Source: Minisyncoccota bacterium
Lineage (GTDB): Bacteria > Patescibacteriota > Minisyncoccia > Phycocordibacterales > Phycocordibacteraceae
Direction: 5' to 3'
DNA: 64,000 bases
NCBI GenBank assembly: GCA_018062765.1
Contig: JAGORR010000001.1
Span: 217,249-281,248 of the forward strand
The first letter of the stretch is position 1; the number at the start of each line of letters is the position of its first letter. The notes below the pieces were generated by a model. That model made no database searches. It was not told the DNA's origin and saw only the letters and a list, made by a program, of their open reading frames with translations. Shown piece after piece: positions 4,065 to 32,147 of the stretch. Position numbers and translations under genes: made by a program.

Positions 4065-4318
4065 GCCGATGTAGCTCAGCTGGTAGAGCACGTCCATGGT
4101 GGGTCGCAAAGCCCTGCCCACGTTTTCAGTAATGAGAGCGTGAATCCCGAATTACGGTTAATAGCCCCACAGGCCAAGACCGTGGCGCATAGCGCCCGAA
4201 CGACTGACAAGGGTATCCGTTCCGGATAAAGATACAGTCTAGCCCTCTTTCGCGTGGCAGTTAGGAAAAGAGGTGTAAGCGAAGGACGGGGTCGCCGGTT
4301 CAAGCCCGGCCATCGGCT
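4065..4318 (+). tRNA. tRNA gene interrupted in the anticodon loop by an approximately 180-nt insertion (candidate group I intron); anticodon not confidently assignable (possibly Arg)
   Basis: 5' half GCCGATG-TA-GCTCAGCTGGTAGAGC-A-CGTCC-AT at 4065-4097. 3' half CGAA-GGACG-GGGTC-GCCGG-TTCAAGC-CCGGC-CATCGGC-T ending at 4318. Acceptor (GCCGATG/CATCGGC), D, anticodon (CGTCC/GGACG) and T stems are all perfectly paired. About 181 nt are inserted after U33/N34. Confidence 0.6.
4098..4279 (+). ncRNA. group I-like intron within the tRNA anticodon loop
   Basis: Contains GCCAAGACCGTGG (4171-4183), GAACGACTGACAAGGGTATCC (R-like, 4197-4217) and AAAGATACAGTCTAGCC (S-like, 4228-4245), with a P7-like GACUG/CAGUC pairing. 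These resemble the conserved cores of Tetrahymena, Anabaena tRNA-Leu and Azoarcus tRNA-Ile introns. Exact splice sites are uncertain. Confidence 0.45.
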
Positions 4319-4324
4319 CAGATA

Positions 4325-4526
4325 CACGAGAAACGCGCCCCTGCGGGGCGCGTTTCTCGTGTATCTGAGACCCTATTAAACTCCGTTAGAACCCATTTTG
4401 CAAAGGAGCCCTGATTACTCGCGCCTCGCGGACTCGGCGCTCGCCCCGACCCCTGTCCGCACTAAAATCCTTTTCTTTTTTCGCGGGGGGGGGGGAATCC
4501 AAAAATCCGGGCTCGGAGCGGCAGGG
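4325..4526. repeat. left copy of a ~200-bp near-identical inverted repeat (IR-L)
   Basis: Reverse complement of 9030-9227. Contains a 37-nt perfect palindrome cacgagaaacgcgcccctgcggggcgcgtttctcgtg at its outer end and a G11 homopolymer (G8 in the partner). Confidence 0.85.
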
Positions 4527-4544
4527 AGAGGGTCATAATCCTTA

Positions 4545-4575
4545 TTGACGCAATATACCCCTTAGGGGTATATTG
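4545..4575 (+). promoter_or_regulatory. sigma70-like promoter overlapped by a CsoR-type operator palindrome; the transcript is probably leaderless
   Basis: TTGACG (4545-4550), 18-nt spacer, TATATT (4569-4574). Operator CAATATACCCC-tta-GGGGTATATTG (4551-4575) matches the ATACCC..GGGTAT CsoR consensus. csoR ATG at 4581. Confidence 0.55.
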
Positions 4576-4580
4576 CGTTT

Positions 4581-4847
4581 ATGCAACAAGCTCACAAGAA
4601 AAGTTTGCTCTCCCGGTTGCGCCGGATCGAAGGCCAAGTTCGGGGCCTTATCCGACTGGTTGAGAAGGATACCTACTGCATAGATGTTATTACCCAAACG
4701 TCGGCAATAAAAAGTGCTCTCTCAAGCGTCGAAGATCTCCTTCTAGAAAATCACTTGGAAACGTGCGCATCGAATCAGATCAAGTCGGGGAATATAAAAA
4801 AGGCGAAGCAGGAGATTCTTGCCGTGTATCGGCTTAAGCGCAAATAG
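4581..4847 (+). CDS. csoR: CsoR/RcnR-family copper-sensing transcriptional repressor
   Basis: 88 aa. RIEGQVRGL, the conserved Cys in YCIDV, and the H..E..C metal ligands (LENHLETC). Confidence 0.8.
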
Positions 4848-4848
4848 C

Positions 4849-7143
4849 ATGAACGATCGTCGAACGTATCGAGTAAAGGGCATGCATTGCGCTTCGTGCG
4901 CAAGCATTATTGAGCGCGCGGTCAAGAAAGTCGATGGAGTAGAGCACGTTGAAGTGAACTACGGCACCGAGACAGCAAAAATCGCCTTTGATGAGAGTAA
5001 AACCAACCCTCACCACCTTTCCGAGCAACTCAAGCCACTTGGCTATTCGTTTGTGGTTCCTACGGCAGAGTCGATGGGAATGTCAGCCGAAGAGCATGCC
5101 GCGCATACGGGACTAGGGCAGTCAAAAGCCGAGAAGCTTGCCGAAATAGAAGAGATGCGATGGAGAGTATTTTCGGTGCTTCCGTTAGCTGCGTTTAGTA
5201 TTTTTGTAATGGGCTGGGAGATGTTCGCTCAGTTGGGCACTCTAAGCCCAATACCGGAAATCTGGAATGAATTTTTCCATCACCTTCTGCCGATCTTTGC
5301 CACGTACACGTTCATTGTCGTAGGAAAGCCGTACGCGCTTGGTTTCTACCGCTTTGTCCGCTACGGCAAGGCGAATATGGATACGCTGATCGGGATAGGC
5401 ACTTCCGTAGCCTTCGTGTACAGCTTCATTCTTTCCGCTTTCGAAGAGCCGCTTCGCCCGTTTCTTAATGTTGATCAGACCTATTACGACGTAACTATTG
5501 TCGTGATCGCGTTTATCGCGCTTGGCAAATACCTCGAAGCTCGTTCGAAGCTCAAGACTGGAGATGCAATCGAGAAACTACTCGGTCTTCAAGCAAAAAC
5601 CGCCTTGGTAGTGAAAAACGGAAAAGAGGTGGAGATTCCAGTAGATCAGGTAGCCCATGGCGATCTCATCGTAGTAAAACCGGGCGGCAAGATACCTGTT
5701 GATGGCGTACTCACCGAAGGCAGTTCGTATGTAGACGAGTCGATGGTCACGGGTGAATCTATGGCAGTCGAAAAGAACGTCGGCGATACGGTCGTGGCAG
5801 GAACCATAAACACCAAGGGACATTTCGTATTTAAGGCTACGAAGGTGGGTTCCGAGACCTTGCTTGCACATATCATCAAGATGGTTGGGGAAGCGCAGGG
5901 AAGTAAGGCGCCCATTCAGGGGCTTGCGGACAAGATTTCAAGCGTGTTCGTCCCCATCGTTCTTGTCTTTTCGATTCTCGTATTTGCCGCATGGCTTCTG
6001 TTTGGCATACCGACACTCGGTCTTGCGCAGGCGCTCACGCTCGGCCTAACCTCGTTTGTGGGTATTTTAGTCATTGCGTGTCCGTGTGCTCTTGGTCTTG
6101 CAACGCCGATTGCCGTAATCGTCGGTGTCGGCAAAGGAGCGCAGGAGGGGATTCTCATCAAGGATGCCGCCACTCTCCAAAAGCTCCGAAGCGTCGATAC
6201 GGTAGTGATTGATAAGACCGGCACCATAACGAAAGGCACGCCGGAAGTGATAGAAGTCGTTGTGCAGGGAAATCGCGGCAAGGACGAATTGATTTCCATC
6301 TTGGCCTCGCTTGAAAAGAAGTCCGAACACCCGCTTGCAACTGCAATCCTTGCATACGCTGAACGTAGAAATATATCGCTCAAATCAGTAGAGCATTTCG
6401 AAATGCTTTCCGGAAGAGGTGTGCGAGGAACTATAGAGGGGGTGGAATACCTCGCGGGTAACACAACGCTCATGCAAGAATACTCCGTTGCATTTGATAA
6501 CTCTTCTCTTAAAGAACGAACCGAGAAAGGAAGGACGCCGGTATTTCTTGCTACGAAGAAAAGTGTTGTTGGGATAGTATTTGTGGCCGATGCGGTAAAA
6601 CCTGAAGCCGTCACTGCCATTCAAAAACTTCATAAGATGGGAATCAAAACCGTTATGCTTACCGGCGATAATCGCCAGACAGCGGAATCTATCGCGAAAG
6701 AAGTCGGTATAGACGACGTGGTGGCACAGATGTTGCCTGACGAGAAGCTCAACAAGATCAAAGAACTTCAAGCCGAGGGGCGTGTGGTCGCAATGGCGGG
6801 GGATGGCGTGAATGATGCTCCTGCACTTGCGCAGGCTGATGTGGGTATTGCCATGGGCACCGGAACCGATGTTGCCATAGAAACCGCAGGCATTACGCTT
6901 CTTGGCGGGGATATTGGGAAGGTCGTAAAAGCGATACGGCTTTCGCGCTTTACCATGACCGGCATTAAGCAAAATCTGTTCTGGGCATTCATCTACAATC
7001 TCGTTGGGATACCGATTGCAGCAGGAATTCTTTATCCGTTTACGGGATGGCTTTTGTCGCCCGTTGTCGCAGGTCTTGCAATGGCGTTTTCAAGCGTGTC
7101 GGTGGTACTCAATTCACTGCGACTAAAAGCCGTTAAACTATAA
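4849..7143 (+). CDS. copA: copper-translocating P1B-type ATPase with an N-terminal HMA domain
   Basis: GMHCASCA (CxxC HMA), TGES, CPC ([10 protein letters not shown]), [18 protein letters not shown] at 4849 directly after the csoR stop. Confidence 0.95.
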
Positions 7144-7150
7144 CTAACTC

Positions 7151-8170
7151 ATGAAATCCTACACTTTCCACGTACACGGGATGCACTGCAATTCTTGCGT
7201 GGTGCTTACCGAGGGTGAACTCAAAGACCATGCGTCTGTAGAGCATGCAGTTGCTGACCTAAAGACGTGCTGCGTCGAAGTTCGAGGTGATTTCGGAGAC
7301 AAAAGCCACACGGAAGTCGCGCAGGAACTCTCGCCGCTTCTTGAAAAGCACGGGTACAAACTCTCCACGGAGAAAGAGCAGAAGGGAGTGAAGTGGTCTG
7401 ATTTTGGTATCGCAGTCCCGGCGACGCTCGGGTTCATGGCATTTTTCGTCATATTGCAAAAGCTCGGGCTGGTGAATCTCGTTTCAAGCGGCGAAGTGAA
7501 TTACGGAACAGCATTCCTCATAGGACTTATTGCTTCCGTCTCGACCTGTATGGCGGTTGTGGGGTCGCTTGTCCTTTCGGTTTCGGCGAACTATGCGAAA
7601 GAAGGGGATAAGGTGCGTCCGCAAGTCCTGTTTCATATCGGACGCCTTGCCGCGTTCTTCCTGCTTGGCGGCATTATCGGCGCGGTCGGTTCAGCGTTTC
7701 AGTTGGGGACAGTCGGCATATTTGTGATGACCTTTGTCGTTGCGCTTGTGATGCTCATACTCGGCATCAACCTGCTTGATATCTTTCCGTGGGCGAAGAA
7801 ACTTCAACCGACGTTTCCGAAGTTCATTTCAAATCACCTACTTGAGATTAAAAAAGTAAACCACACGCTCACACCAGTGTTGCTCGGTATCGTCACATTC
7901 GTTCTCCCATGCGGATTCACGCAGTCAATGCAACTCTACTCACTTACGACGGGAAGCTTCTGGGGAGGGGCAACGACGATGTTCGTATTTGCGCTTGGTA
8001 CTTTGCCAGTACTCGCGCTTTTGAGTTTCGGTTCACTAGGAATTCGCGATAAAGCGACATCAAGCGTGTTCTTCAAGACGGCGGGACTGGTCGTGATCAT
8101 ATTCGCCCTCATGAATCTGGTAAATAGCTTCGTGATAATTGGGTTCATACCACCTATCTTTAATTTCTAG
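7151..8170 (+). CDS. HMA metal-binding domain fused to a DsbD_2/CcdA-like two-cysteine transmembrane domain
   Basis: N-terminal GMHCNSC HMA fold. Six or more TM helices, with conserved Cys in the TM segments (ASVSTCMAVVG and VLPCGFTQ). Confidence 0.55.
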   Translation: MKSYTFHVHGMHCNSCVVLTEGELKDHASVEHAVADLKTCCVEVRGDFGDKSHTEVAQELSPLLEKHGYKLSTEKEQKGVKWSDFGIAVPATLGFMAFFVILQKLGLVNLVSSGEVNYGTAFLIGLIASVSTCMAVVGSLVLSVSANYAKEGDKVRPQVLFHIGRLAAFFLLGGIIGAVGSAFQLGTVGIFVMTFVVALVMLILGINLLDIFPWAKKLQPTFPKFISNHLLEIKKVNHTLTPVLLGIVTFVLPCGFTQSMQLYSLTTGSFWGGATTMFVFALGTLPVLALLSFGSLGIRDKATSSVFFKTAGLVVIIFALMNLVNSFVIIGFIPPIFNF

Positions 8171-8174
8171 TACC

Positions 8175-8570
8175 ATGGATACGAGCATGAAAGCGACTAT
8201 TGCGGCAGTTATTTTCGGAGGGCTTTTGATCGGTGGAGCATTGCTTCTCTCGGGTAGTTCCGCTACTGACGCTGTCGAGGGAGTCAATGTGAGCGTAGTT
8301 GATGGGAAACAAATAATCGAAATTGGTGCCAAGGGAGGTTATTCTCCGAGAGAGACTATTGCAAAAGCAGACATCCCAACAGTCCTGCGCGTTGCAACGA
8401 AAGGAACGTTCGATTGTTCGTCGGCACTTACTATCCCGGCGATTGGATATCAAAATAGTCTGCCTCCCTCCGGTACTACCGACATAGAAATTCCTCCACA
8501 AAAACCCGGTACGACTCTCCAGGGACTCTGTGCGATGGGAATGTACAACTTTTCCATTAAATTTAACTAG
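8175..8570 (+). CDS. membrane-anchored cupredoxin-like protein (putative Cu-binding), hypothetical
   Basis: N-terminal TM anchor, beta-rich domain, Cys/Met cluster (FDCSS, GLCAMGMY). Position in the cop operon. Homology is tentative. Confidence 0.35.
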   Translation: MDTSMKATIAAVIFGGLLIGGALLLSGSSATDAVEGVNVSVVDGKQIIEIGAKGGYSPRETIAKADIPTVLRVATKGTFDCSSALTIPAIGYQNSLPPSGTTDIEIPPQKPGTTLQGLCAMGMYNFSIKFN

Positions 8571-8635
8571 GGAGCCCCGCCGCATCCTCGCGGCGGGATA
8601 TGCGCGCACGGGTGGGGGCAAGCATGTATGAATTT

Positions 8636-8936
8636 GCCTCGGGGCTGTTTCCGCTATGAGCGTCCATGGCTAAAGGACGAAGGCCGACGTTCGCCGGAGG
8701 CACTCTCTTCCGAAGCGGAAGCGACACAACGAACACCCGTATGCAATGGAGGATGGGGGTTGTGCGAGGCCGGACTCCGAAGGAACGAGGAGGAGGCCGA
8801 AGCTGGGGGAAGGATTCCTTCCTTCCCCCAAACAAGAGCCGCCCCGAAGCTCCCGCCCCGCAGGGCGGAGAGCAAGGAAAACGGCGGCACAGAGGAATCT
8901 AGGCCTTCGTAGCCATAGCGGAAACAGCCCCGAGGC
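8636..8936. repeat. 301-bp GC-rich element bounded by perfect 23-bp inverted repeats (MITE-like element or highly structured RNA)
   Basis: gcctcggggctgtttccgctatg (8636-8658) is the exact reverse complement of 8914-8936. The interior carries multiple local hairpins (cttccgaagcggaag, gggggaagg...ccttccccc). ORFs occur in all six frames, indicating no coding capacity. Confidence 0.5.
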
Positions 8937-9029
8937 GGATGCCGAGGGGTGAATCTCTTTAGTCAGGGGCGCTTCAAAGCGGATAAAAACAGACACGAGA
9001 CCACTGGGTATTTTGGGCTACCCCCGAGC

Positions 9030-9227
9030 CCTGCCGCTCCGAGCCCGGATTTTTGGATTCCCCCCCCGCGAAAAAAGAAAAGGATTTTAGTGCGGACAGG
9101 GGTCGGGGCGAGCGCCGAGTCCGCGAGGCGCGAGTAATCAGGGCTCCTTTGCAAAATGGGTTCTAACGGAGTTTAATAGGGTCTCAGATACACGAGAAAC
9201 GCGCCCCGCAGGGGCGCGTTTCTCGTG
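9030..9227. repeat. right copy of the ~200-bp inverted repeat (IR-R)
   Basis: Reverse complement of 4325-4526; differs essentially only in poly-G/C tract length. Confidence 0.85.
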
Positions 9228-9241
9228 GTAGATTCTAAGTA

Positions 9242-10240
9242 ATGATGCGTCACTTTCTTGTGCCGACACTGGTGTCGGCGCTCATACTTATAGCGCTTGG
9301 CGTATGGCTTGGGCCCGCGGCGTTCGTCACTGCCGTTCTCCTTGTCATTCTTGAGGTCACGCTTTCCTTTGATAATGCGGTCGTAAACGCCCGCATCCTT
9401 AAGGGTATGACGCCGGTGTGGCAGCGACGCTTCCTGACCTGGGGCATGCTCTTTGCTGTTTTTGGTACACGTCTCGTCCTTCCGATACTCATCGTCGCGG
9501 CTTCTGCATGGATGTCACCTTTGGCGGTTGCCTACATGGCCGGATTCGATCCTGAGGCGTATGCGCATCTTCTAGAGGGAACGAAGCACGCGATATACAG
9601 CTTCGGTGCCGCGTTCCTCCTTATGGTGTCCTTGAAGTATTTCTTCGACCAGGAGAAGGAGCTCCATTGGATAGGAATCATCGAGAAGCATTTGTCCCGC
9701 TGGGGTCGCATCGAGGCTTTGGAAATCGGATTTGGCCTTCTCATTCTCCTCGGGTTCTCATTCCTGGTCCCGTCTGCGGAGCAGGGAATCGTGCTCTCCT
9801 CAGGCATTATCGGCATCGCGCTCTTTATCCTCATGCAGGGTATCGCAAGCTCGTTCGCGGTAGAGACGGACACCATCGCGACGACGGCCGCGGGCGCCGG
9901 CCTCGCGCTCTTCATTTACCTCAACATTCTCGACTCCGCATTCTCCCTTGATAGCGTGGTGGGTGCCTTCGCACTCTCAACCGCCATACCCGTTATCGTC
10001 GCAGGCCTCGGTATTGGCGCCTGGTTCGTGCGTTCTCTCACCATCTACTTCGTGCAGAAGGGAACACTCGACACCCTGCTCTACCTTGAGCACGGCGCGC
10101 ACTGGGCCATCCTTGGTCTCGCCCTCTCGATGTACGCCGGGCTCTTGTTCCATGTACCGGAGACGATTACCGGCACCATAGGACTAGCATTTGTCGTCGC
10201 GGCCTATTATTCGTCGCTTCGCGTGAAGAAACATGCTTGA
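9242..10240 (+). CDS. TerC/DUF475-family integral membrane protein
   Basis: EVTLSFDNAVVNA motif; multi-pass membrane protein; 332 aa. Confidence 0.65.
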   Translation: MMRHFLVPTLVSALILIALGVWLGPAAFVTAVLLVILEVTLSFDNAVVNARILKGMTPVWQRRFLTWGMLFAVFGTRLVLPILIVAASAWMSPLAVAYMAGFDPEAYAHLLEGTKHAIYSFGAAFLLMVSLKYFFDQEKELHWIGIIEKHLSRWGRIEALEIGFGLLILLGFSFLVPSAEQGIVLSSGIIGIALFILMQGIASSFAVETDTIATTAAGAGLALFIYLNILDSAFSLDSVVGAFALSTAIPVIVAGLGIGAWFVRSLTIYFVQKGTLDTLLYLEHGAHWAILGLALSMYAGLLFHVPETITGTIGLAFVVAAYYSSLRVKKHA

Positions 10241-10907
10241 AAAGAACGATAATTTGCCGCCGCTTCCCACAACACGCGAGGTGGTGAAGAACCTATTCAT
10301 CCTTGCGATTGTCATCGTGCTCGCGTATGTCGTCACGGTGGTGATTGGTGTGGAGCGGTTGCGGGAACTTGCGATCACACTCGGTCCTTGGGGCGCGCTC
10401 CTCGTCATCGTAGTCAAAATGACCACCATCATTGTTGTGCCCTTGGGAGGCGGCATCGTCTATCCGATTGCAGGCGCGGTGTACGGATTCTGGTACGGGT
10501 GGGCGCTGACCTTAATTGGGGATTTTTTGGGGTTTGCCACCGCGTTCTACCTATCGCGCGCATTTGGTCGGCCTATCGCGCGCTTCTTTGTTCCGCAGAG
10601 CCAGTGGGGTACCTTCGAGCGCGTACTCGCAAAAAGCTCATCTTGGAAGACCCTCATCAAGGCCCGAATCGCGTTTTCACCCCTACCAGAGCTTTTCGCG
10701 TACGCAGCAGGTCTTACCAAAGTGTCGTTCATCGTGTTCATCACCATCATGATGGTGCTCCAGATTCCAGGCACGGCAATCTTCACCTTATTCGGAGACT
10801 TGCTCCTTGCGGGTGACTTCGTCGCGCTCGCGCTTGCTGGGGTTGTTGGTGCGGTGCTTATGTTCGGCGGTGGCTGGCTTCTCCATAAGGACCTCGCCAA
10901 GGACTGA
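10233..10907 (+). CDS. DedA/SNARE-associated (TVP38/TMEM64) family membrane protein
   Basis: GDFLGFATAFYLSRAFGRP motif region and hydrophobicity pattern typical of DedA. Confidence 0.7.
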   Translation: MLEKNDNLPPLPTTREVVKNLFILAIVIVLAYVVTVVIGVERLRELAITLGPWGALLVIVVKMTTIIVVPLGGGIVYPIAGAVYGFWYGWALTLIGDFLGFATAFYLSRAFGRPIARFFVPQSQWGTFERVLAKSSSWKTLIKARIAFSPLPELFAYAAGLTKVSFIVFITIMMVLQIPGTAIFTLFGDLLLAGDFVALALAGVVGAVLMFGGGWLLHKDLAKD

Positions 10908-26270: not shown

Positions 26271-26404
26271 GAGGGGTAGTGTGTGGAAGATAAAGGACCC
26301 TGGGGTTTTGCCCCGGGGTTTTTCGTATGTAGCTGGTCCAGGACGCACCCCTCGACATGGCTACTTAGAGAGGTAGGGGTCGATTTCTAAAAAGAAGTTT
26401 TTGT

Positions 26405-27091
26405 GTGATTATTCAATCAATGGCCCTGGGTAATATAACGAGTCAAGTAATCTCAAAACAACGTGTTTCCGACCATGGTGAGGTACTAACGGCTGAGCGA
26501 GAGGTAAACGCCATGCTCGACATGGTGCGCCATGAGACCGAACGCATTGACTCCCGTTTCCTCGAGCCAGCTTGCGGCACAGGCAATTTCCTAGCTCCAG
26601 TGTACGAAAAAAAGCTTGCCGTCATTAAAAAGCGCTACGGTAAAAGCCAGCTAGAGTTTGAACGCTACGCCGTTACAGGCACAGGCTCCATCTATGGAGT
26701 GGACATTCTTGAGGACAACATAAAACTCTGCCGCAAGCGCCTGTTCGACATCTTTAACGAGCTCTACACGGCGCTCTACAAGAAAAGAAGCAAGGATGCT
26801 GTCCGCAGTGCAGTCCGCTTTGTTCTCAACAGAAACATTTTGTGGGGTGATGCACTTTCTCTTAAAACGGTGTCAAAACAGCCGATGCCCATCGTGTTCT
26901 CCGAGTGGTCTATGGTACGCGGTAGCATGATGAAAAGGCGCGACTTCTCGTTTGAGGAGCTTATGCCCGACAGCGCGGCAAAAGTGAGCCTGTTCAAGCA
27001 AGCAGAAATATCCGATCTTGGGACACCAGCGTTCATACCGACCCCTGTAAAAGAGTACCCACTTACTCATTTCCTTTCACTACACGTATGA
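26405..27091 (+). CDS. Eco57I/gamma-class N6-adenine DNA methyltransferase homolog lacking catalytic motif IV (SAM-binding pseudo-methyltransferase?)
   Basis: Motif X-like HGEVLTAEREV and a canonical motif I FLEPACGTGNFL. The expected (D/N)PP(Y/F) position reads NRNILWGD. 228 aa; may start at the internal ATG at 26420. Confidence 0.55.
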   Translation: MIIQSMALGNITSQVISKQRVSDHGEVLTAEREVNAMLDMVRHETERIDSRFLEPACGTGNFLAPVYEKKLAVIKKRYGKSQLEFERYAVTGTGSIYGVDILEDNIKLCRKRLFDIFNELYTALYKKRSKDAVRSAVRFVLNRNILWGDALSLKTVSKQPMPIVFSEWSMVRGSMMKRRDFSFEELMPDSAAKVSLFKQAEISDLGTPAFIPTPVKEYPLTHFLSLHV

Positions 27092-28578
27092 AAGTTCCGA
27101 CGAGCTACAACCCCGATGTTCTTACGTGTCTTGCCAACCTTAGCAACGACGAGGTGTTCACACCGCCAGCGTTGGTGAACCAAATACTCGACACCTTGCC
27201 GTCCGAAATTTGGCGAGACAAAACTGCCACTTTTCTTGATCCAGTCTCTAAGACAGGTGTTTTTCTGCGCGAAATAGTCCGCCGCCTCAATGATGGTCTG
27301 GTCAAAGAAATCCCCGACGCACAAGCACGGCTCGATCATATTTACACCAAGCAGGTGTTCGGCATCGCCATCACCGAGCTCACGGCACTGCTCTCGCGAC
27401 GCTCGCTTTACTGCTCGAAAGACGCAAGCGGCAAGTATTCAGTAAGTGAGGCGTTCAAAAGTGCTGACGGCAATGTACGCTTCGAGCGCACCGAGCATAG
27501 CTGGAAAGACGGTAAATGTGCCTTCTGTGGTGCAGGCCAGGCCGAGTATGATCGCGCCGAGGCGCTTGAGACCCATGCTTACCAGTTTATTCACACCGAC
27601 AACCCTAGTACACTGTTTAATAATATGAAGTTTGATGTAATTGTCGGCAATCCACCATATCAGTTGAGCGATGCTGGCGATAGCACGGGCGCATCGCCGA
27701 TATATCAACTCTTTGTTGAGCAAGCAAAGAAACTTCAACCACGCTTTTTGACAATGATTATTCCGTCGCGTTGGTTTGCAGGAGGGAAAGGGCTTGAGGG
27801 TTTTCGTGAAGATATGTTGAACGACGGACGAATCTCACATTTGGTGGACCATCCAATCGCGTCAGATGTTTTCCCCGGTATCAAATTGAATGGTGGTGCT
27901 TGCTATTTCCTATGGAATCGCGAATATCAGGGAGAATGCGAAGTAACCATAAAGATGAGCGGCATGGAGGATACAACAAAACGGCGACTCAATCAGTTCG
28001 ATACATTTGTTCGTTTCAACAAGGCAATCTCAATTTTGGATAAGGTGCAGTCGAAAAAGTATTCATCGTTGAGTGAGCTGGTATCACGACAAAAGCCGTT
28101 TGGACTCCGTACTTTTGAGCGTCCAACAGGAAAGGGTACTGTAAAGCTATACGCGAACAAAACCATTGGAAAGATTGAAAAGTCTGCAATAACCGTCGGG
28201 TTCGATATGTTGGATTCGTGGAAAGTATTTATTTCGATGGGCTATGGTGAAGGTGGCGAGGCGCGCGAATATCCGCGCATGATTTTGGGTAAACCCATCG
28301 TTGCTGCCCCGGGAATTGCATGTACAGAGACATATATTGTTGTTGGGAAATATAAGACAGAAAAAGAGGCAGAAAATCTTGCTAAATATTTACAAACGAA
28401 GTTCTTGCGATTCTTGGTCGCTCTTCGTAAAAACACGCAACACGTTACTAGAGATCGGTTTTTATTTGTGCCCGATTTGCCAATGAAAGAAGAATGGACA
28501 GACGAAAAGCTTAACAAGCTTTTCCGTCTGACAAAAGAGGAGATCGAATTCATTGACATGATCGTTCGTCCCATATAG
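27088..28578 (+). CDS. N6-adenine DNA methyltransferase, gamma class (Eco57I family)
   Basis: Motif X DEVFTPPALV, motif I region LDPVSKTGVFL (non-canonical), motif IV VIVGNPPYQ; 496 aa; start overlaps the upstream stop (ATGA). Confidence 0.8.
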   Translation: MKVPTSYNPDVLTCLANLSNDEVFTPPALVNQILDTLPSEIWRDKTATFLDPVSKTGVFLREIVRRLNDGLVKEIPDAQARLDHIYTKQVFGIAITELTALLSRRSLYCSKDASGKYSVSEAFKSADGNVRFERTEHSWKDGKCAFCGAGQAEYDRAEALETHAYQFIHTDNPSTLFNNMKFDVIVGNPPYQLSDAGDSTGASPIYQLFVEQAKKLQPRFLTMIIPSRWFAGGKGLEGFREDMLNDGRISHLVDHPIASDVFPGIKLNGGACYFLWNREYQGECEVTIKMSGMEDTTKRRLNQFDTFVRFNKAISILDKVQSKKYSSLSELVSRQKPFGLRTFERPTGKGTVKLYANKTIGKIEKSAITVGFDMLDSWKVFISMGYGEGGEAREYPRMILGKPIVAAPGIACTETYIVVGKYKTEKEAENLAKYLQTKFLRFLVALRKNTQHVTRDRFLFVPDLPMKEEWTDEKLNKLFRLTKEEIEFIDMIVRPI

Positions 28579-28580
28579 CT

Positions 28581-31094
28581 ATGGCCGATTTTTTTCCGCC
28601 ACGGCCGGAGGCAAAGCCTACTATCTACGCCTACAAGCTCAAAGGTGTGGAAACGCATGCTCATCTCCTCAAGGTGGGCTACACGACGCGCGATGCGCAA
28701 AGCCGCATTGCCGAACAGCTCACCACCGCGCGTTTGCAATACGAAATTGTTTTTGAAGAACCGGCTATGCGTGCCGATGGTTCGACATTTACAGATACCG
28801 ACGTGCATCGCCACTTGCGCGGAAAGCGCATCACGAATCCGGAAGGAGAGTGGTTTGAGTGTGGAGTGAAAGACGTGCGAGCAGCGTACGTTGCCATACG
28901 AGAGGGTGTGTTCAACGAAGAAAACCGCACACAAACATTCGGAATGCGCCCAGAGCAAGCCGATGCTGTGGTAAAAACCGCCGCGTATTTTACCGAGGCG
29001 CATGCTGACGGCAAGCAAACACCGCATTTTTTATGGAATGCCAAAATGCGCTTCGGGAAAACATTCACCACGTACCAGCTCGCCAAAAAGATGGGATGGA
29101 GGAGGGTGTTAGTGCTCACCTTTAAGCCCGCCGTGCACAATTCCTGGCACGAGGATTTGATGAACCATGTAGATTTTGAGGGATGGCAGTTTGTCTCGCG
29201 ACGGGGGAATACGCTCAATCATGCTGACATTGATGAAAAGAAACCATTTGTCGTATTTGGTTCGTTCCAGGATTTTCTCGGAAAAAACAGCGCAGGCGGG
29301 ATAAAAGCAAAGAATGAGTGGGTACACGAGACAACATGGGATGCTGTCGTCTTTGATGAATACCACTATGGTGCGTGGCGCGAGAGCGCGAAGGATTTGT
29401 TTGTCGGTGAGGAAAAAGACGTACGCAAGGACGAAGAGGGTGAGGCGTTGGAGTACTTTGACGAGCGCGCAGTGCCGATAAAGACCGGCGCGTATCTCTA
29501 CCTTTCGGGTACCCCATTTCGGGCTATTGCGAGCGGAGAATTTATCGAAGAGCAGATTTTCAACTGGACGTACAGTGACGAACAGCGGGCAAAAGAAGAG
29601 TGGGACAGTGCGAAGGGACCCAACCCATATGCGTCGTTGCCACGGATGGTGATGCTCACCTATCAGTTACCTGATGCTATACGTGAAGTGGCGATGGGTG
29701 GGGAGTTCAATCAGTTTGATTTGAGCCAGTTTTTTGCTGCAGAAGGAAAGGGCAAGAGCGCGAAATTTTTGTATAAAGACGAAGTGCAAAAGTGGCTGGA
29801 TTTGATTCGCGGTGCGTTTGCTGAAACTACCGTAGACAATTTGAAGCTGGGAGCGAAGAAGCCTGCGTTGCCGTTTTCTGACACGCGGCTTTTGAATGTG
29901 CTATCGCACACGTTTTGGTTTTTGCCGAGTGTAGCGGCCTGTCATGCTATGGCGAATTTGCTCAAGCAACGACAGAACAAGTTTTTTAACGAGTACGAGG
30001 TGATTGTGGCAGCGGGTACGGCGGCGGGAATTGGCGTGGCGGCGCTTGAGCCTGTGCTGAGGAAGATGGGCGAGCCCTTGAAGACGCGCACAATTACGCT
30101 TTCGTGCGGCAAACTGACGACGGGTGTATCCGTGAAGCCATGGACAGGTATTTTTATGCTGCGCAATGTAGCGAGCCCCGAGACATATTTTCAGGCGGCT
30201 TTTCGCGTGCAGACACCGTGGACTGTGCCGAATCCGGAGGGCAACGCGCCAAATCGTGAAGAAATCATCAAGCAGGAATGCTATGTTTTCGATTTTGCTC
30301 CGGATCGCGCTTTGCGACAGATTGCCGAGTATAGTTCTAGACTCAATTTGGATGATTCGGTCAGTCCCGAGAAAAAGGTGGAGGAGTTTATTCACTTCTT
30401 GCCGGTCTTGGCCTATGACGGAAGCGCGATGAATCAGATAGACGCGGCGGGAATTTTGGATATGGCGATGAGCGGGACCACTGCCACGTTGCTTGCGCGG
30501 CGTTGGGAGAGTGCGCTTTTGGTGAATGTCGACAACTATACTCTGGCGCGCTTGATGAACAGTGATGAAGCGATGCAGGCATTGATGAGTATTGAAGGCT
30601 TTCGTGCTCTGAATCAAGATATTGAGACTATCATCAACAAGTCCGGTGTGGTGGAGAAACTGAAAAAAGAAGCGAACGATCGGACGTTGACGAAGAAAGA
30701 AACAGAGTCATTGAGCGACGCCGAAAAAGAATTGAAGGGCAAGCGTAAGCAGGTGCAGGAAAAGCTCATCAAATTTGCAACTCGCATTCCGGTGTTTATG
30801 TATCTCACCGACTACCGCGAGCATACTTTGAAGGACGTAATCAATGAGCTTGAGCCGGACTTGTTTAAACGCGTTACCGGTCTTACTAAAAAGGACTTCG
30901 AGCTCTTGGTGAGCTTAGGTGTATTCAACGATTCGTTGATGAACGACGCGGTTTACAAATTCCGTCGATATGAGGATGCGAGTTTGGCGTACACCGGCAT
31001 AAACAGGCACGAAGGGGAGAATGTTGGTCTTTTTAGCACAGTCCTTTCTGTAAAAGAATACGACCAAACATTCATAAATACTCCAGAAGAGTAG
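28581..31094 (+). CDS. GIY-YIG (T5orf172-like) nuclease domain fused to an SF2 (SNF2/ResIII-like) helicase
   Basis: N-terminus TIYAYKLKGVETHAHLLKVGYTTRD...EGEWFE. Helicase motifs: Q-like TFGMRPEQADAV, I NAKMRFGKTFT, II VVFDEYHYG, III LSGTPF, V LTTGVSV, VI QAAFRVQTP. 837 aa. Confidence 0.6.
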   Translation: MADFFPPRPEAKPTIYAYKLKGVETHAHLLKVGYTTRDAQSRIAEQLTTARLQYEIVFEEPAMRADGSTFTDTDVHRHLRGKRITNPEGEWFECGVKDVRAAYVAIREGVFNEENRTQTFGMRPEQADAVVKTAAYFTEAHADGKQTPHFLWNAKMRFGKTFTTYQLAKKMGWRRVLVLTFKPAVHNSWHEDLMNHVDFEGWQFVSRRGNTLNHADIDEKKPFVVFGSFQDFLGKNSAGGIKAKNEWVHETTWDAVVFDEYHYGAWRESAKDLFVGEEKDVRKDEEGEALEYFDERAVPIKTGAYLYLSGTPFRAIASGEFIEEQIFNWTYSDEQRAKEEWDSAKGPNPYASLPRMVMLTYQLPDAIREVAMGGEFNQFDLSQFFAAEGKGKSAKFLYKDEVQKWLDLIRGAFAETTVDNLKLGAKKPALPFSDTRLLNVLSHTFWFLPSVAACHAMANLLKQRQNKFFNEYEVIVAAGTAAGIGVAALEPVLRKMGEPLKTRTITLSCGKLTTGVSVKPWTGIFMLRNVASPETYFQAAFRVQTPWTVPNPEGNAPNREEIIKQECYVFDFAPDRALRQIAEYSSRLNLDDSVSPEKKVEEFIHFLPVLAYDGSAMNQIDAAGILDMAMSGTTATLLARRWESALLVNVDNYTLARLMNSDEAMQALMSIEGFRALNQDIETIINKSGVVEKLKKEANDRTLTKKETESLSDAEKELKGKRKQVQEKLIKFATRIPVFMYLTDYREHTLKDVINELEPDLFKRVTGLTKKDFELLVSLGVFNDSLMNDAVYKFRRYEDASLAYTGINRHEGENVGLFSTVLSVKEYDQTFINTPEE

Positions 31095-31103
31095 TAAAAA
31101 TCT

Positions 31104-31991
31104 ATGGCACTTTTTCAATCAAAAAACGATAAGGTTACACAGGTCGGTATAGACCTGTCGCAATTTAGAAACGAGGCTGCCCTACGAGATTTTTTTGCTG
31201 GAAATCTTGAGGAACTTTTAGGACTTCGATTTCTTGCGAATGAATACAGAACCACAGATGGGCGTATAGACACCTTGGCAATTGATGAGGTGGGTACTCC
31301 GGTAATAATTGAGTACAAATGGGATGAGAACGATGCTATTCTCCCGCAAGGCTTGTCCTACATGGCTTGGCTAAAAGACAATAAACGTTTATACGATTTG
31401 CTCGTATCAGATAGACTAGGGAAAGATATCAAAGTGTTTTGGGACATTCCGCGTCTCATTCTTGTAGCACAGCGCTTTGATCGTCGCACGCTCGCTGCCG
31501 CCGGAGAAGCGAAAAATAGTGTTGAACTCATTAAATATACACCTTACGACTCGGGCATATTACATCTTGAAACAGTTTACGGTTCTGAAAAAGTAAGAAC
31601 AGTTTCAGAAACAGTAGCTAAATTGTCATCAAAAGGTGTCAAATATTCTCTCGACCATCATTTAAATAGGGTAAACGAGGATGTTAAGCAGATGTTCTAC
31701 GCTCTTCAAGCAGAAATTCTTAAATGGACAAACGTAGACGAGAGGATCGATCAAAAAGTAGGGATAACGTATCGTACGACCAAGAGTTTCGTCCGTTTCG
31801 AGTTCGGTAAGAGCTATGTGAATGTTTTGGTACGAGACCCACGCTACGATCACAAAATTGACCCGAAAGGTCTATTGAAGGATGTGTCCTCGTTCGGCTG
31901 GGGTTATAAGGGGGTTGCTAAATTGAAATCGAAAGAGGATGTACAGGATGTTCTTGAGTTAGTGCGGGCATCGTACGAATCTACCCTATAA
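31104..31991 (+). CDS. PD-(D/E)xK (NucS/DUF91-like) nuclease domain plus a DUF5655-like C-terminal domain protein
   Basis: GRIDTLAIDEVGTPVIIEYKWDE fits a D...(E/D)xK core. C-terminal region resembles DUF5655. 295 aa. Confidence 0.45.
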   Translation: MALFQSKNDKVTQVGIDLSQFRNEAALRDFFAGNLEELLGLRFLANEYRTTDGRIDTLAIDEVGTPVIIEYKWDENDAILPQGLSYMAWLKDNKRLYDLLVSDRLGKDIKVFWDIPRLILVAQRFDRRTLAAAGEAKNSVELIKYTPYDSGILHLETVYGSEKVRTVSETVAKLSSKGVKYSLDHHLNRVNEDVKQMFYALQAEILKWTNVDERIDQKVGITYRTTKSFVRFEFGKSYVNVLVRDPRYDHKIDPKGLLKDVSSFGWGYKGVAKLKSKEDVQDVLELVRASYESTL

Positions 31992-32147
31992 CGAGAGGCA
32001 ATTTATATTGCATGTTGCTAAACCTAGTTCTAAGCAGGTGCTAGTTTCAATCAATAGATAAGCGATATTTTTGGCTATTTACATGACAAATGGCTGTGAG
32101 ACAATTATTGGGAATCGGCGTAAGAAACCGCTCCTCACATCGTCTTC

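Follow-up and report, generated by a model that had tools for sequence, protein, structure and literature searches.

Copper export is thought to rest on P1B-type ATPases together with soluble or tethered chaperones, and little is understood of what becomes of Cu(I) at the outer surface of monoderm cells. The current work concerns a copper operon in a 64,000-nucleotide stretch of DNA (the window) from a Minisyncoccota bacterium of the Patescibacteria (contig JAGORR010000001.1, positions 217,249 to 281,248 of the forward strand). In this operon, the gene of the Cu(I)-exporting ATPase CopA is followed by a gene that joins a heavy-metal-associated (HMA) domain to a polytopic DsbD_2 membrane domain, and by a gene for a small, membrane-anchored cupredoxin related to CupA. 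The two proteins may together hand Cu(I) outward across the cytoplasmic membrane alongside CopA.

Several described systems share parts with this locus. In the MerP-MerT-NmerA relay, a thiophilic metal is passed between cysteine pairs, with an HMA domain on one side, a pair within the membrane and a cysteine site on the other side. The present locus, with its HMA domain, membrane cysteine pair and cysteine site across the membrane, would run the same logic outward, from a predicted cytoplasmic HMA domain to a cupredoxin as the outer station, whereas the mer relay runs inward, ends in a reductase and relies on the fold of MerT with 3 transmembrane (TM) helices. In Salmonella, the Scs system contains a copper-induced protein of the DsbD superfamily, and CueP receives Cu(I) from CopA (PMC10907172). 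Here too, a DsbD-superfamily protein occurs with a Cys-containing copper-binding protein that is probably extracytoplasmic; however, the Scs proteins (ScsB, ScsC, ScsD) have thioredoxin-fold periplasmic domains and no HMA domain, CueP is unrelated to cupredoxins, and Scs is a Gram-negative periplasmic system under the control of CpxR instead of CsoR. The staphylococcal protein CopL has a DUF1541 fold, is not known to have Cys ligands and is unrelated to the cupredoxin of the window. Encoded in copBL/copXL of Staphylococcus aureus, it is an extracellular, membrane-attached Cu-binding protein that accompanies a CsoR-controlled P1B ATPase and has been proposed to prevent copper (re)uptake (PMC10233261). 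The predicted arrangement in the window is similar, and likewise in a monoderm, but CopL is a lipoprotein without a dedicated polytopic partner.

The ligands of Streptococcus pneumoniae CupA hold a binuclear Cu(I) cluster, and CupA reduces Cu(II) in vitro (PMC7558416, PMC5646241). The membrane domain is best compared with CcdA and DsbD; the LysE superfamily, to which DsbD belongs, is made up largely of carriers for metal ions and solutes (PMC4608589). Proteins of COG2836, which combine HMA and DsbD-type domains, were predicted in 2016 to be members of CsoR regulons in gut Firmicutes, which are anaerobes (PMC4938975). Literature searches that combined DsbD_2/PF13386, COG2836 and PF13473 with copper returned this prediction and passing mentions, with no experimental characterisation found, and searches on Patescibacteria and copper returned nothing relevant. 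The architecture of the family is already visible in Pfam, and its regulation by CsoR has been predicted through COG2836; the family as such is therefore known, though mis-named in databases. The new elements are that the partner is identified as a CupA homologue, that it is inferred to lie outside the cell, that the two proteins are obligately paired or fused, and that they are read as three stations in series.

The copper operon and its promoter

The listing of open reading frames (ORFs) shows a compact unit of four genes on the + strand, csoR, copA, the HMA-DsbD_2 fusion and the cupredoxin gene, with spacers of 1, 7 and 4-16 nucleotides (nt). Its features are the following (aa, amino acids):

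4545..4576, + strand: promoter-like site with an overlapping palindrome; best + strand promoter-like site in 4250-9300, 10/12 matches
4581..4847, + strand: csoR, copper-sensing repressor, 88 aa; PF02583 (Trns_repr_metal), 91.9 bits; closest NCBIfam model RicR/CsoR-like
4849..7143, + strand: copA, Cu(I)-exporting P1B-type ATPase, 764 aa, with one N-terminal HMA domain; Pfam and NCBIfam matches
7151..8170, + strand: HMA-DsbD_2 fusion, 339 aa, beginning MKSYTFHVHGMHCNSC; PF00403 and PF13386
8187..8570, + strand: membrane-anchored CupA-like cupredoxin, 127 aa from ATG 8187; PF13473 and CupA profile match

The assignment of copA follows from Pfam matches to E1-E2_ATPase, Hydrolase and HMA (60 bits) and from the NCBIfam model TIGR01511, copper-translocating P-type ATPase (612 bits against a cutoff of 397). 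Its start is taken at ATG 4849, as in the public gene call of 764 aa; the mechanical ORF begins at TTG 4819. The promoter-like site consists of TTGACG, 18 nt and TATATT at 4545-4574, and is overlapped by a perfect 13+1+13 palindrome, GCAATATACCCCT-T-AGGGGTATATTGC, at 4550-4576. This palindrome is a putative CsoR-type operator, since its ATACCCC...GGGGTAT core resembles published CsoR sites such as ATACCctggGTGGGTAT (PMC10233261). The csoR ATG stands 7 nt from the -10 hexamer, so that the transcript would be nearly leaderless, and the operon mRNA may be leaderless or nearly so. With csoR, a GC-rich palindrome at the promoter and a Cu(I) P1B ATPase gene in one unit, the locus has the make-up of a csoR-regulated cop operon and is probably one. 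No copZ gene appears among the ORFs of the operon, the terminator scan gave no convincing intrinsic terminator 3' of the cupredoxin gene, and the Rfam scan gave no match in or around the operon. A role in cytochrome c biogenesis, suggested by the Pfam description of the membrane domain, was ruled out: the operon is a cop operon, and no cytochrome maturation genes lie nearby.

The HMA-DsbD_2 membrane protein

A preliminary description of this DNA had proposed that the gene after copA fuses an HMA domain with a CxxC motif (GMHCNSC) to a membrane domain of the DsbD_2/CcdA fold that carries two TM-embedded cysteines. The ORF listing and Pfam agree with the fusion. The reading frame starts 7 nt past the copA stop (7143). 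Its HMA domain (PF00403, aa 5-69, 27.4 bits against a cutoff of 24.8) has the GMHCNSC motif and belongs with the Cu(I)-binding domains of the HMA/CopZ type, and its DsbD_2 domain (PF13386, aa 120-320) scores 114.8 bits (E 6.3e-33, cutoff 24.9) over model positions 1-198 of 199, which is above the gathering threshold and across the whole model. NCBIfam holds no model for the membrane domain and gave only weak MerTP matches, through the HMA domain. Hydropathy indicates seven helices, an adaptor helix TM0 at aa ~86-105 and the 6-TM DsbD_2 core at aa ~118-333. The membrane cysteines are C133 in TM1 and C254 in TM4, the latter within the motif LPCGFTQSMQ, and TM2 contains an invariant arginine, R165. 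In AlphaFold2 models, TM1 and TM4 are each broken at the cysteine (pLDDT ~74; pTM 0.63 for the full length and 0.70 for the membrane part).

Conservation was assessed in 129 full-length representatives of 50%-identity clusters, which are 34-64% identical to the query. The HMA cysteines C13 and C16 are conserved at 96%, C133, S131 and R165 at 100% and C254 at 99%. The TM4 motif F-x-L-P-C-G-F-T-Q-x-x-Q and the TM5 motif F-A-L-G-T-x-P-x-L reach 86-99% per position, and about 35 intramembrane positions, including both cysteines, R165, PCGFTQ..Q and GTxP, are conserved at 85% or more. Both membrane cysteines persist at 26-31% identity, in relatives from Clostridia, Paenibacillus and Streptomyces, and the proposal of two embedded cysteines thus holds.

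The layout of the core is of the CcdA type: six helices (3+3), with one conserved Cys each in TM1 and TM4, in the middle of the membrane at helix breaks. The sequence profile of CcdA/DsbD (PF02683, TC 5.A.1) does not include the protein. PF02683 gave no match to the fusion at E<=10, a family profile searched against Protein Data Bank (PDB) chains found no CcdA, DsbD or other membrane-protein relative, and hhalign against a Streptomyces CcdA aligned only a 15-column FFxPC motif with a probability of 3.6%. This bona fide Streptomyces CcdA cross-matches PF13386 at 23.6 bits, just below the cutoff. Compared with CcdA/DsbD (CcdA nuclear magnetic resonance structure 5VKV), TM1 here reads S-x-C and lacks Pro-Cys; the cytoplasmic partner is a fused HMA domain instead of thioredoxin; the external partner is a cupredoxin instead of a thioredoxin-fold protein; and the operon serves copper instead of cytochrome c biogenesis. 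The fusion is clearly a DsbD_2 protein, CcdA-like in fold and cysteine placement, and its resemblance to CcdA/DsbD proper lies at the level of fold only. The earlier assignment to a DsbD_2/CcdA fold therefore stands for DsbD_2 membership, fold and cysteine positions; membership in PF02683 finds no support at the sequence level.

An identical protein is deposited at NCBI as a 'sulfite exporter TauE/SafE family protein' of Candidatus Pacebacteria bacterium (contig JAGOQO010000002.1, GCA_017991435.1), and JGI likewise places it in the TauE/SafE family. Neither the membrane domain nor six relatives matched TauE/SafE (PF01925) at E<=10, so this database name was rejected; the membrane domain matches DsbD_2 only, as the preliminary description had supposed. 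InterPro presumably ties PF13386 to the nickel permease UreH; published work treats UreH as a transporter of Ni.

The CupA-like cupredoxin

The mechanical ORF of the small protein, 8139-8570 from TTG, encodes 143 aa, and the public gene call from ATG 8175 gives 131 aa. The true start is probably ATG 8187, since the 'MK' at this point is 94-95% conserved in 79 orthologues. At its N-terminus, the protein has an anchor or signal (MKATIAAVIFGGLLIGGALLL); the beta domain behind it matches Cupredoxin_1 (PF13473) at 27.6 bits against a cutoff of 27. A phmmer search of the PDB found S. pneumoniae CupA (2MRY/4F2E, E 8.9e-5), whose ligands align to C93 and to C131-A-M133-G-M135; C93, C131, M133 and M135 (numbering of the 143-aa ORF) are accordingly the Cu(I) ligands predicted by this alignment. 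A profile built from 20 orthologues and fused domains matched CupA at E 8.7e-18 and the N-terminal, cupredoxin-type metal-binding domain of S. pneumoniae CopA (4F2F) at E 1.1e-14, the next match being the 'Cupredoxin 1' protein 4HCF at E 7e-4. Among the 79 orthologues, all from Patescibacteria, the two Cys and two Met ligands are 99-100% conserved. Judged by sequence, then, the small protein and S. pneumoniae CupA are homologous, and the Cys...Cys-x-Met-x-Met set is kept, in line with the cupredoxin-like anchored protein that had been proposed for this gene.

The likeness to CupA extends from the homologous cupredoxin-like domains with their aligned binuclear Cu(I) ligands to the single N-terminal membrane anchor and to the position of the gene in a cop operon with a repressor and CopA. 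In the pneumococcal system, however, the published location of the CupA domain is cytoplasmic, where it feeds a CopA with a matching cupredoxin-type domain, and the regulator is CopY. Here the domain is predicted to lie outside, CopA carries an ordinary HMA domain, the regulator is CsoR, and the cupredoxin is always paired or fused with HMA-DsbD_2.

Gene pairing, fusions and distribution

The family is large, with at least 5,785 clusters at 90% identity and at least 4,081 at 50% identity. Gene order was surveyed in 80 Patescibacteria loci, whose fusion proteins are 60-81% identical to that of the window. The cupredoxin gene lies immediately downstream of the fusion gene in 78/80, and the other 2 end before that point; copA lies upstream in 74/80 and csoR in 62/80. 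The gene pair is strictly tied to cop operons. Moreover, HMA-DsbD_2-cupredoxin single chains account for at least 37 of the best 150 cluster representatives, an architecture confirmed by Pfam, and several of these triple fusions have two cupredoxin domains and Cys-rich tails. Whether paired or fused, the two genes are obligate companions and encode one device.

The link to copper or heavy-metal P-type ATPases also holds in Clostridia and Streptomyces. In the clostridial locus L081, a triple fusion lies directly upstream of copA; in the Streptomyces plasmid locus L083, a DsbD_2-cupredoxin gene is accompanied by genes for a free-standing small HMA protein, for a P-type ATPase and, twice, for a true CcdA. 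A few close relatives have His/Cys-rich tails (MEHHEHGTCADTSCEQC, CPLC) in place of the HMA domain. One cluster representative, P0151 (604 aa), joins the C-terminal half of CopA in frame with TM0 and the DsbD_2 core, without HMA; it is either a natural Rosetta-stone fusion, in which case physical contact with CopA would be suggested, or the product of read-through or of fragmented gene calling.

Genes of the thioredoxin fold are not among the recurrent neighbours in the 80 loci. The extra genes that do recur between csoR or copA and the fusion gene encode DUF305 (37 loci) and YHS-domain proteins (17 loci), along with small Cys/His-containing membrane proteins without a Pfam family (about 20 loci each). 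Loci with inserted genes include:

L006, 4423-5725
L022, 3156-3716
L010, 5312-5974
L078, 4505-4705

The products of these inserted genes are likely to be further copper-handling accessories.

Contig JAIELV010000001.1 (L001, L002) carries two full csoR-copA-fusion-cupredoxin clusters ~300 kb apart in one genome; the two fusion proteins are each 81% identical to that of the window, and the copA genes are 45% and 69% identical to its copA. On plasmid NZ_CP048287.1 of Paenibacillus rhizovicinus (L082, 3896-4573), a DsbD_2-only relative without HMA and TM0, with TM1 reading HCIVMCGG, is part of an accessory cluster for nitrous-oxide reductase that also holds nosL and genes for an ABC transporter, a redoxin, a cytochrome c, FixH and an SCO protein. 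This context favours the supply of reductant or copper to a cuproenzyme.

Membrane topology

Over the 129 sequences, the mean number of lysines plus arginines on the HMA side is 3.3 before TM0 and 2.8, 5.0 and 1.8 in loops 1-2, 3-4 and 5-6, against 0.4, 0.3 and 0.2 in loops 0-1, 2-3 and 4-5 on the other side. This strong positive-inside signal predicts a 7-TM protein with its N-terminus and HMA domain inside and its C-terminus outside. TM0 would only serve to keep the HMA domain cytoplasmic; its absence would then be expected wherever HMA is missing, and distant relatives without HMA indeed have no TM0. The joining of the CopA C-terminus to TM0 in P0151 fits a TM0 that runs from inside to outside.

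The CupA-like domain should lie outside the cell, on the side opposite to CupA, because the membrane core is predicted to end outside and no hydrophobic segment separates its last helix from the cupredoxin in 38/38 triple fusions examined. The anchor of the free-standing cupredoxin, with a conserved Lys before it and a net-neutral, acid-containing stretch after it, gives a weak signal alone, and the fusions carry the argument. For comparison, the anchor of streptococcal CupA has 0.34 lysines plus arginines before the helix and 3.70 after it, a pattern found in 99% of 86 sequences, which places its N-terminus outside and its domain in the cytoplasm and matches the published location. The suggestion that the small protein is an extracytoplasmic copper acceptor gains support from the CupA ligand set, from adjacency or fusion and from this predicted outside position.

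Possible mechanisms

The two gene products would place three thiol stations in series across the cytoplasmic membrane. The first would be the cytoplasmic CopZ-like HMA domain (GMHCxxC), held at the membrane by TM0; the second, C133 of TM1 and C254 of TM4 at helix breaks in the middle of the CcdA-like 6-TM core; and the third, the extracytoplasmic CupA-like Cys...Cys-x-Met-x-Met site, separately anchored in the window and fused C-terminally in many relatives. Rising cytoplasmic Cu(I) would cause CsoR to release the operon. By ligand exchange, Cu(I) would then pass from the HMA domain to the membrane Cys pair, exposed alternately to each side as in CcdA, and from this pair to the external CupA-like site. 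Such a transfer would be independent of ATP, would supplement CopA and would load a surface copper buffer.

This outward hand-over of Cu(I) alongside CopA is the favoured reading, with a probability of roughly 0.45; Cu(I) as the passenger and the outward direction are hypotheses. The general proposition, that a CcdA-type fold, so far known only for carrying electrons (thiol-disulfide exchange), has been adapted in Patescibacteria, Firmicutes and Actinobacteria to carry Cu(I) between Cys pairs as an ATP-independent conduit, is advanced tentatively. Cu(I) hand-over is favoured because it uses each part for a known role and because Cu(I)-type ligands are 96-100% conserved at all stations. The near-universal HMA domain, and its replacement by His/Cys-rich tails, indicate a metal-binding role on the pathway. 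Hand-over also fits the survey, in which no thioredoxin-fold partner recurs, the Streptomyces cluster with its distinct CcdA genes, and the presence of the system in anaerobes.

Several points weigh against Cu(I) as the passenger. Among solved structures, only that of the electron transporter CcdA can be aligned over almost the full membrane core, and a single Cys in each of TM1 and TM4 is the signature arrangement of thiol-disulfide carriers. The Met residues beside the membrane cysteines are less constant (M134 60%, M260 72% in the 129 representatives), and across cupredoxin domains the Cys pair is invariant and the Met residues vary (CAMGIP, CLSGSP), which suits a redox pair no less than it does a Cu(I) site. 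An invariant arginine, R165, is unexpected in a cation path, and the confidence of the AlphaFold2 models is moderate (pLDDT ~74). The literature search found no transport or binding data for any PF13386 protein, and CopA of the same operon already exports Cu(I), so that a second exporter needs justification.

The preliminary description had suggested that the binding of Cu(I) is coupled to the transfer of electrons or thiols across the membrane. This would be the second of two live mechanisms, with direct Cu(I) hand-over rated slightly higher. Here, a CcdA-like transmembrane reductase would keep the cysteines of the external copper site reduced: its Cys pair would carry two electrons to the CupA-like domain from a donor in the cytoplasm (thioredoxin, with the HMA CxxC possibly as an intermediate or a gate). 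Kept reduced in an oxidising, Cu(II)-rich setting, the CupA-like domain would bind the Cu(I) released by CopA or would reduce and trap Cu(II). The HMA domain would sense copper and have a regulatory role, as it does in P1B ATPases. Such a reductase suits the CcdA-like fold, the external Cys pair that stays invariant while Met varies, and the rule that only externally placed CupA-like domains have a DsbD_2 partner; it has a precedent in Scs and CueP, and it explains why the device is needed though CopA already exports copper. However, we know of no redox-relay function of HMA domains, and an extra copper gate is not obviously needed where transcription is already copper-controlled. In addition, the 80 loci show no recurring thioredoxin-fold partner, profile searches detect no homology to PF02683, the Streptomyces cluster holds separate CcdA genes beside its DsbD_2-cupredoxin gene, and the system is common in anaerobes (L081; PMC4938975). 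A reductase is somewhat less likely than Cu(I) hand-over and is its main rival; the two mechanisms are not mutually exclusive. The maturation of cuproproteins, given as an example in the same description, is unlikely because the operon is a CsoR-controlled detoxification unit.

It is considerably less probable that the protein is a membrane-tethered chaperone only, whose HMA domain feeds CopA in the plane of the membrane, as S. pneumoniae CupA does, with the polytopic domain as an anchor or CopA-docking module and the cupredoxin as a buffer for exported copper, like staphylococcal CopL. The position of the fusion gene 7 nt after copA, the single CopA-DsbD_2 fusion among the cluster representatives and the want of copZ in the operon speak for it, and an extracellular Cu-binding lipoprotein encoded with a P1B ATPase is a known arrangement from CopL (PMC10233261). 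A mere anchor, however, would not keep ~35 intramembrane positions so highly conserved, the obligate fusion or adjacency of the cupredoxin is left unexplained, and distant relatives without HMA retain the Cys pair and the cupredoxin.

An importer of copper or another thiophilic metal, or a sulfite or anion exporter as the TauE/SafE name of NCBI and JGI implies, is very improbable, even though the Mer relay, the closest mechanistic analogue, runs inward, since Pfam gives no TauE match at E<=10 and import under copper excess would be harmful in an operon with a CsoR-type repressor and an efflux ATPase.

Flanking repeats and other features of the window

A perfect inverted repeat of ~200 nt brackets the whole csoR-copA-fusion-cupredoxin operon. 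The repeat search placed its arms as follows:

4325..4526, no strand assigned: left arm of the inverted repeat, 100% complementary to the right arm
9029..9227, no strand assigned: right arm of the inverted repeat

The left arm also occurs upstream of csoR in an independent assembly (L085), and a GC-rich hairpin lies at each outer end of the repeat (left: 4317-4369). The enclosed operon has a GC content of ~51%, against 55-57% around it. No transposase or recombinase is found inside the bracketed segment. The bracketing repeat, the recurring arm, the lower GC content, the 60-81% identity across many lineages of Patescibacteria and the genome with two copies suggest that the operon is a mobile cassette; it may be mobile or invertible.

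An ORF-poor spacer, 8571-9028, follows the cupredoxin gene and contains a 23-nt perfect inverted repeat (8636-8658/8914-8936) that encloses ~255 nt. The predicted fold of 8571-9241, a stretch that takes in the right arm with its hairpin, is far more stable than expected (z -6.6 relative to shuffled sequences) and has no Rfam match. Immediately beyond the right arm, 9242-10240 encodes a membrane protein of the DUF475/TerC family and 10233-10907 a protein of the VTT/DedA type. TerC and DsbD are both members of the LysE superfamily (PMC4608589). Neither gene is recurrent near the fusion gene in the 80 loci, in which one weak VTT match was seen (L040).

Farther away, an island of low GC content (46-51%) and high GC skew extends over 26400-32000. 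Read by eye, its ORFs include candidate DNA methyltransferases (26405-27091 and 27088-28578), a large helicase-like protein (28581-31094) and a further ORF (31104-31991), and the island is probably a restriction-modification or defence island. At ~495-1185 on the - strand, a gene with an alternative oxidase domain (PF01786, AOX; gene table of L084) lies upstream of glmS, with a VIT1-family gene nearby at the window's edge. An alternative oxidase is unexpected in the Patescibacteria, a lineage usually described as fermentative.

Significance

The operon would add a copper-defence module to the small gene repertoire of the Patescibacteria. If Cu(I) is what moves through the membrane domain, the family would represent a new class of copper transporter that serves CupA-type sites on the outer face of the membrane, and the CupA paradigm would be extended to the cell surface. 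If electrons move instead, monoderms would have their first reductase dedicated to an extracellular copper chaperone, with an unexplained HMA input. In either outcome, thousands of proteins now named 'TauE/SafE' would merit re-annotation.

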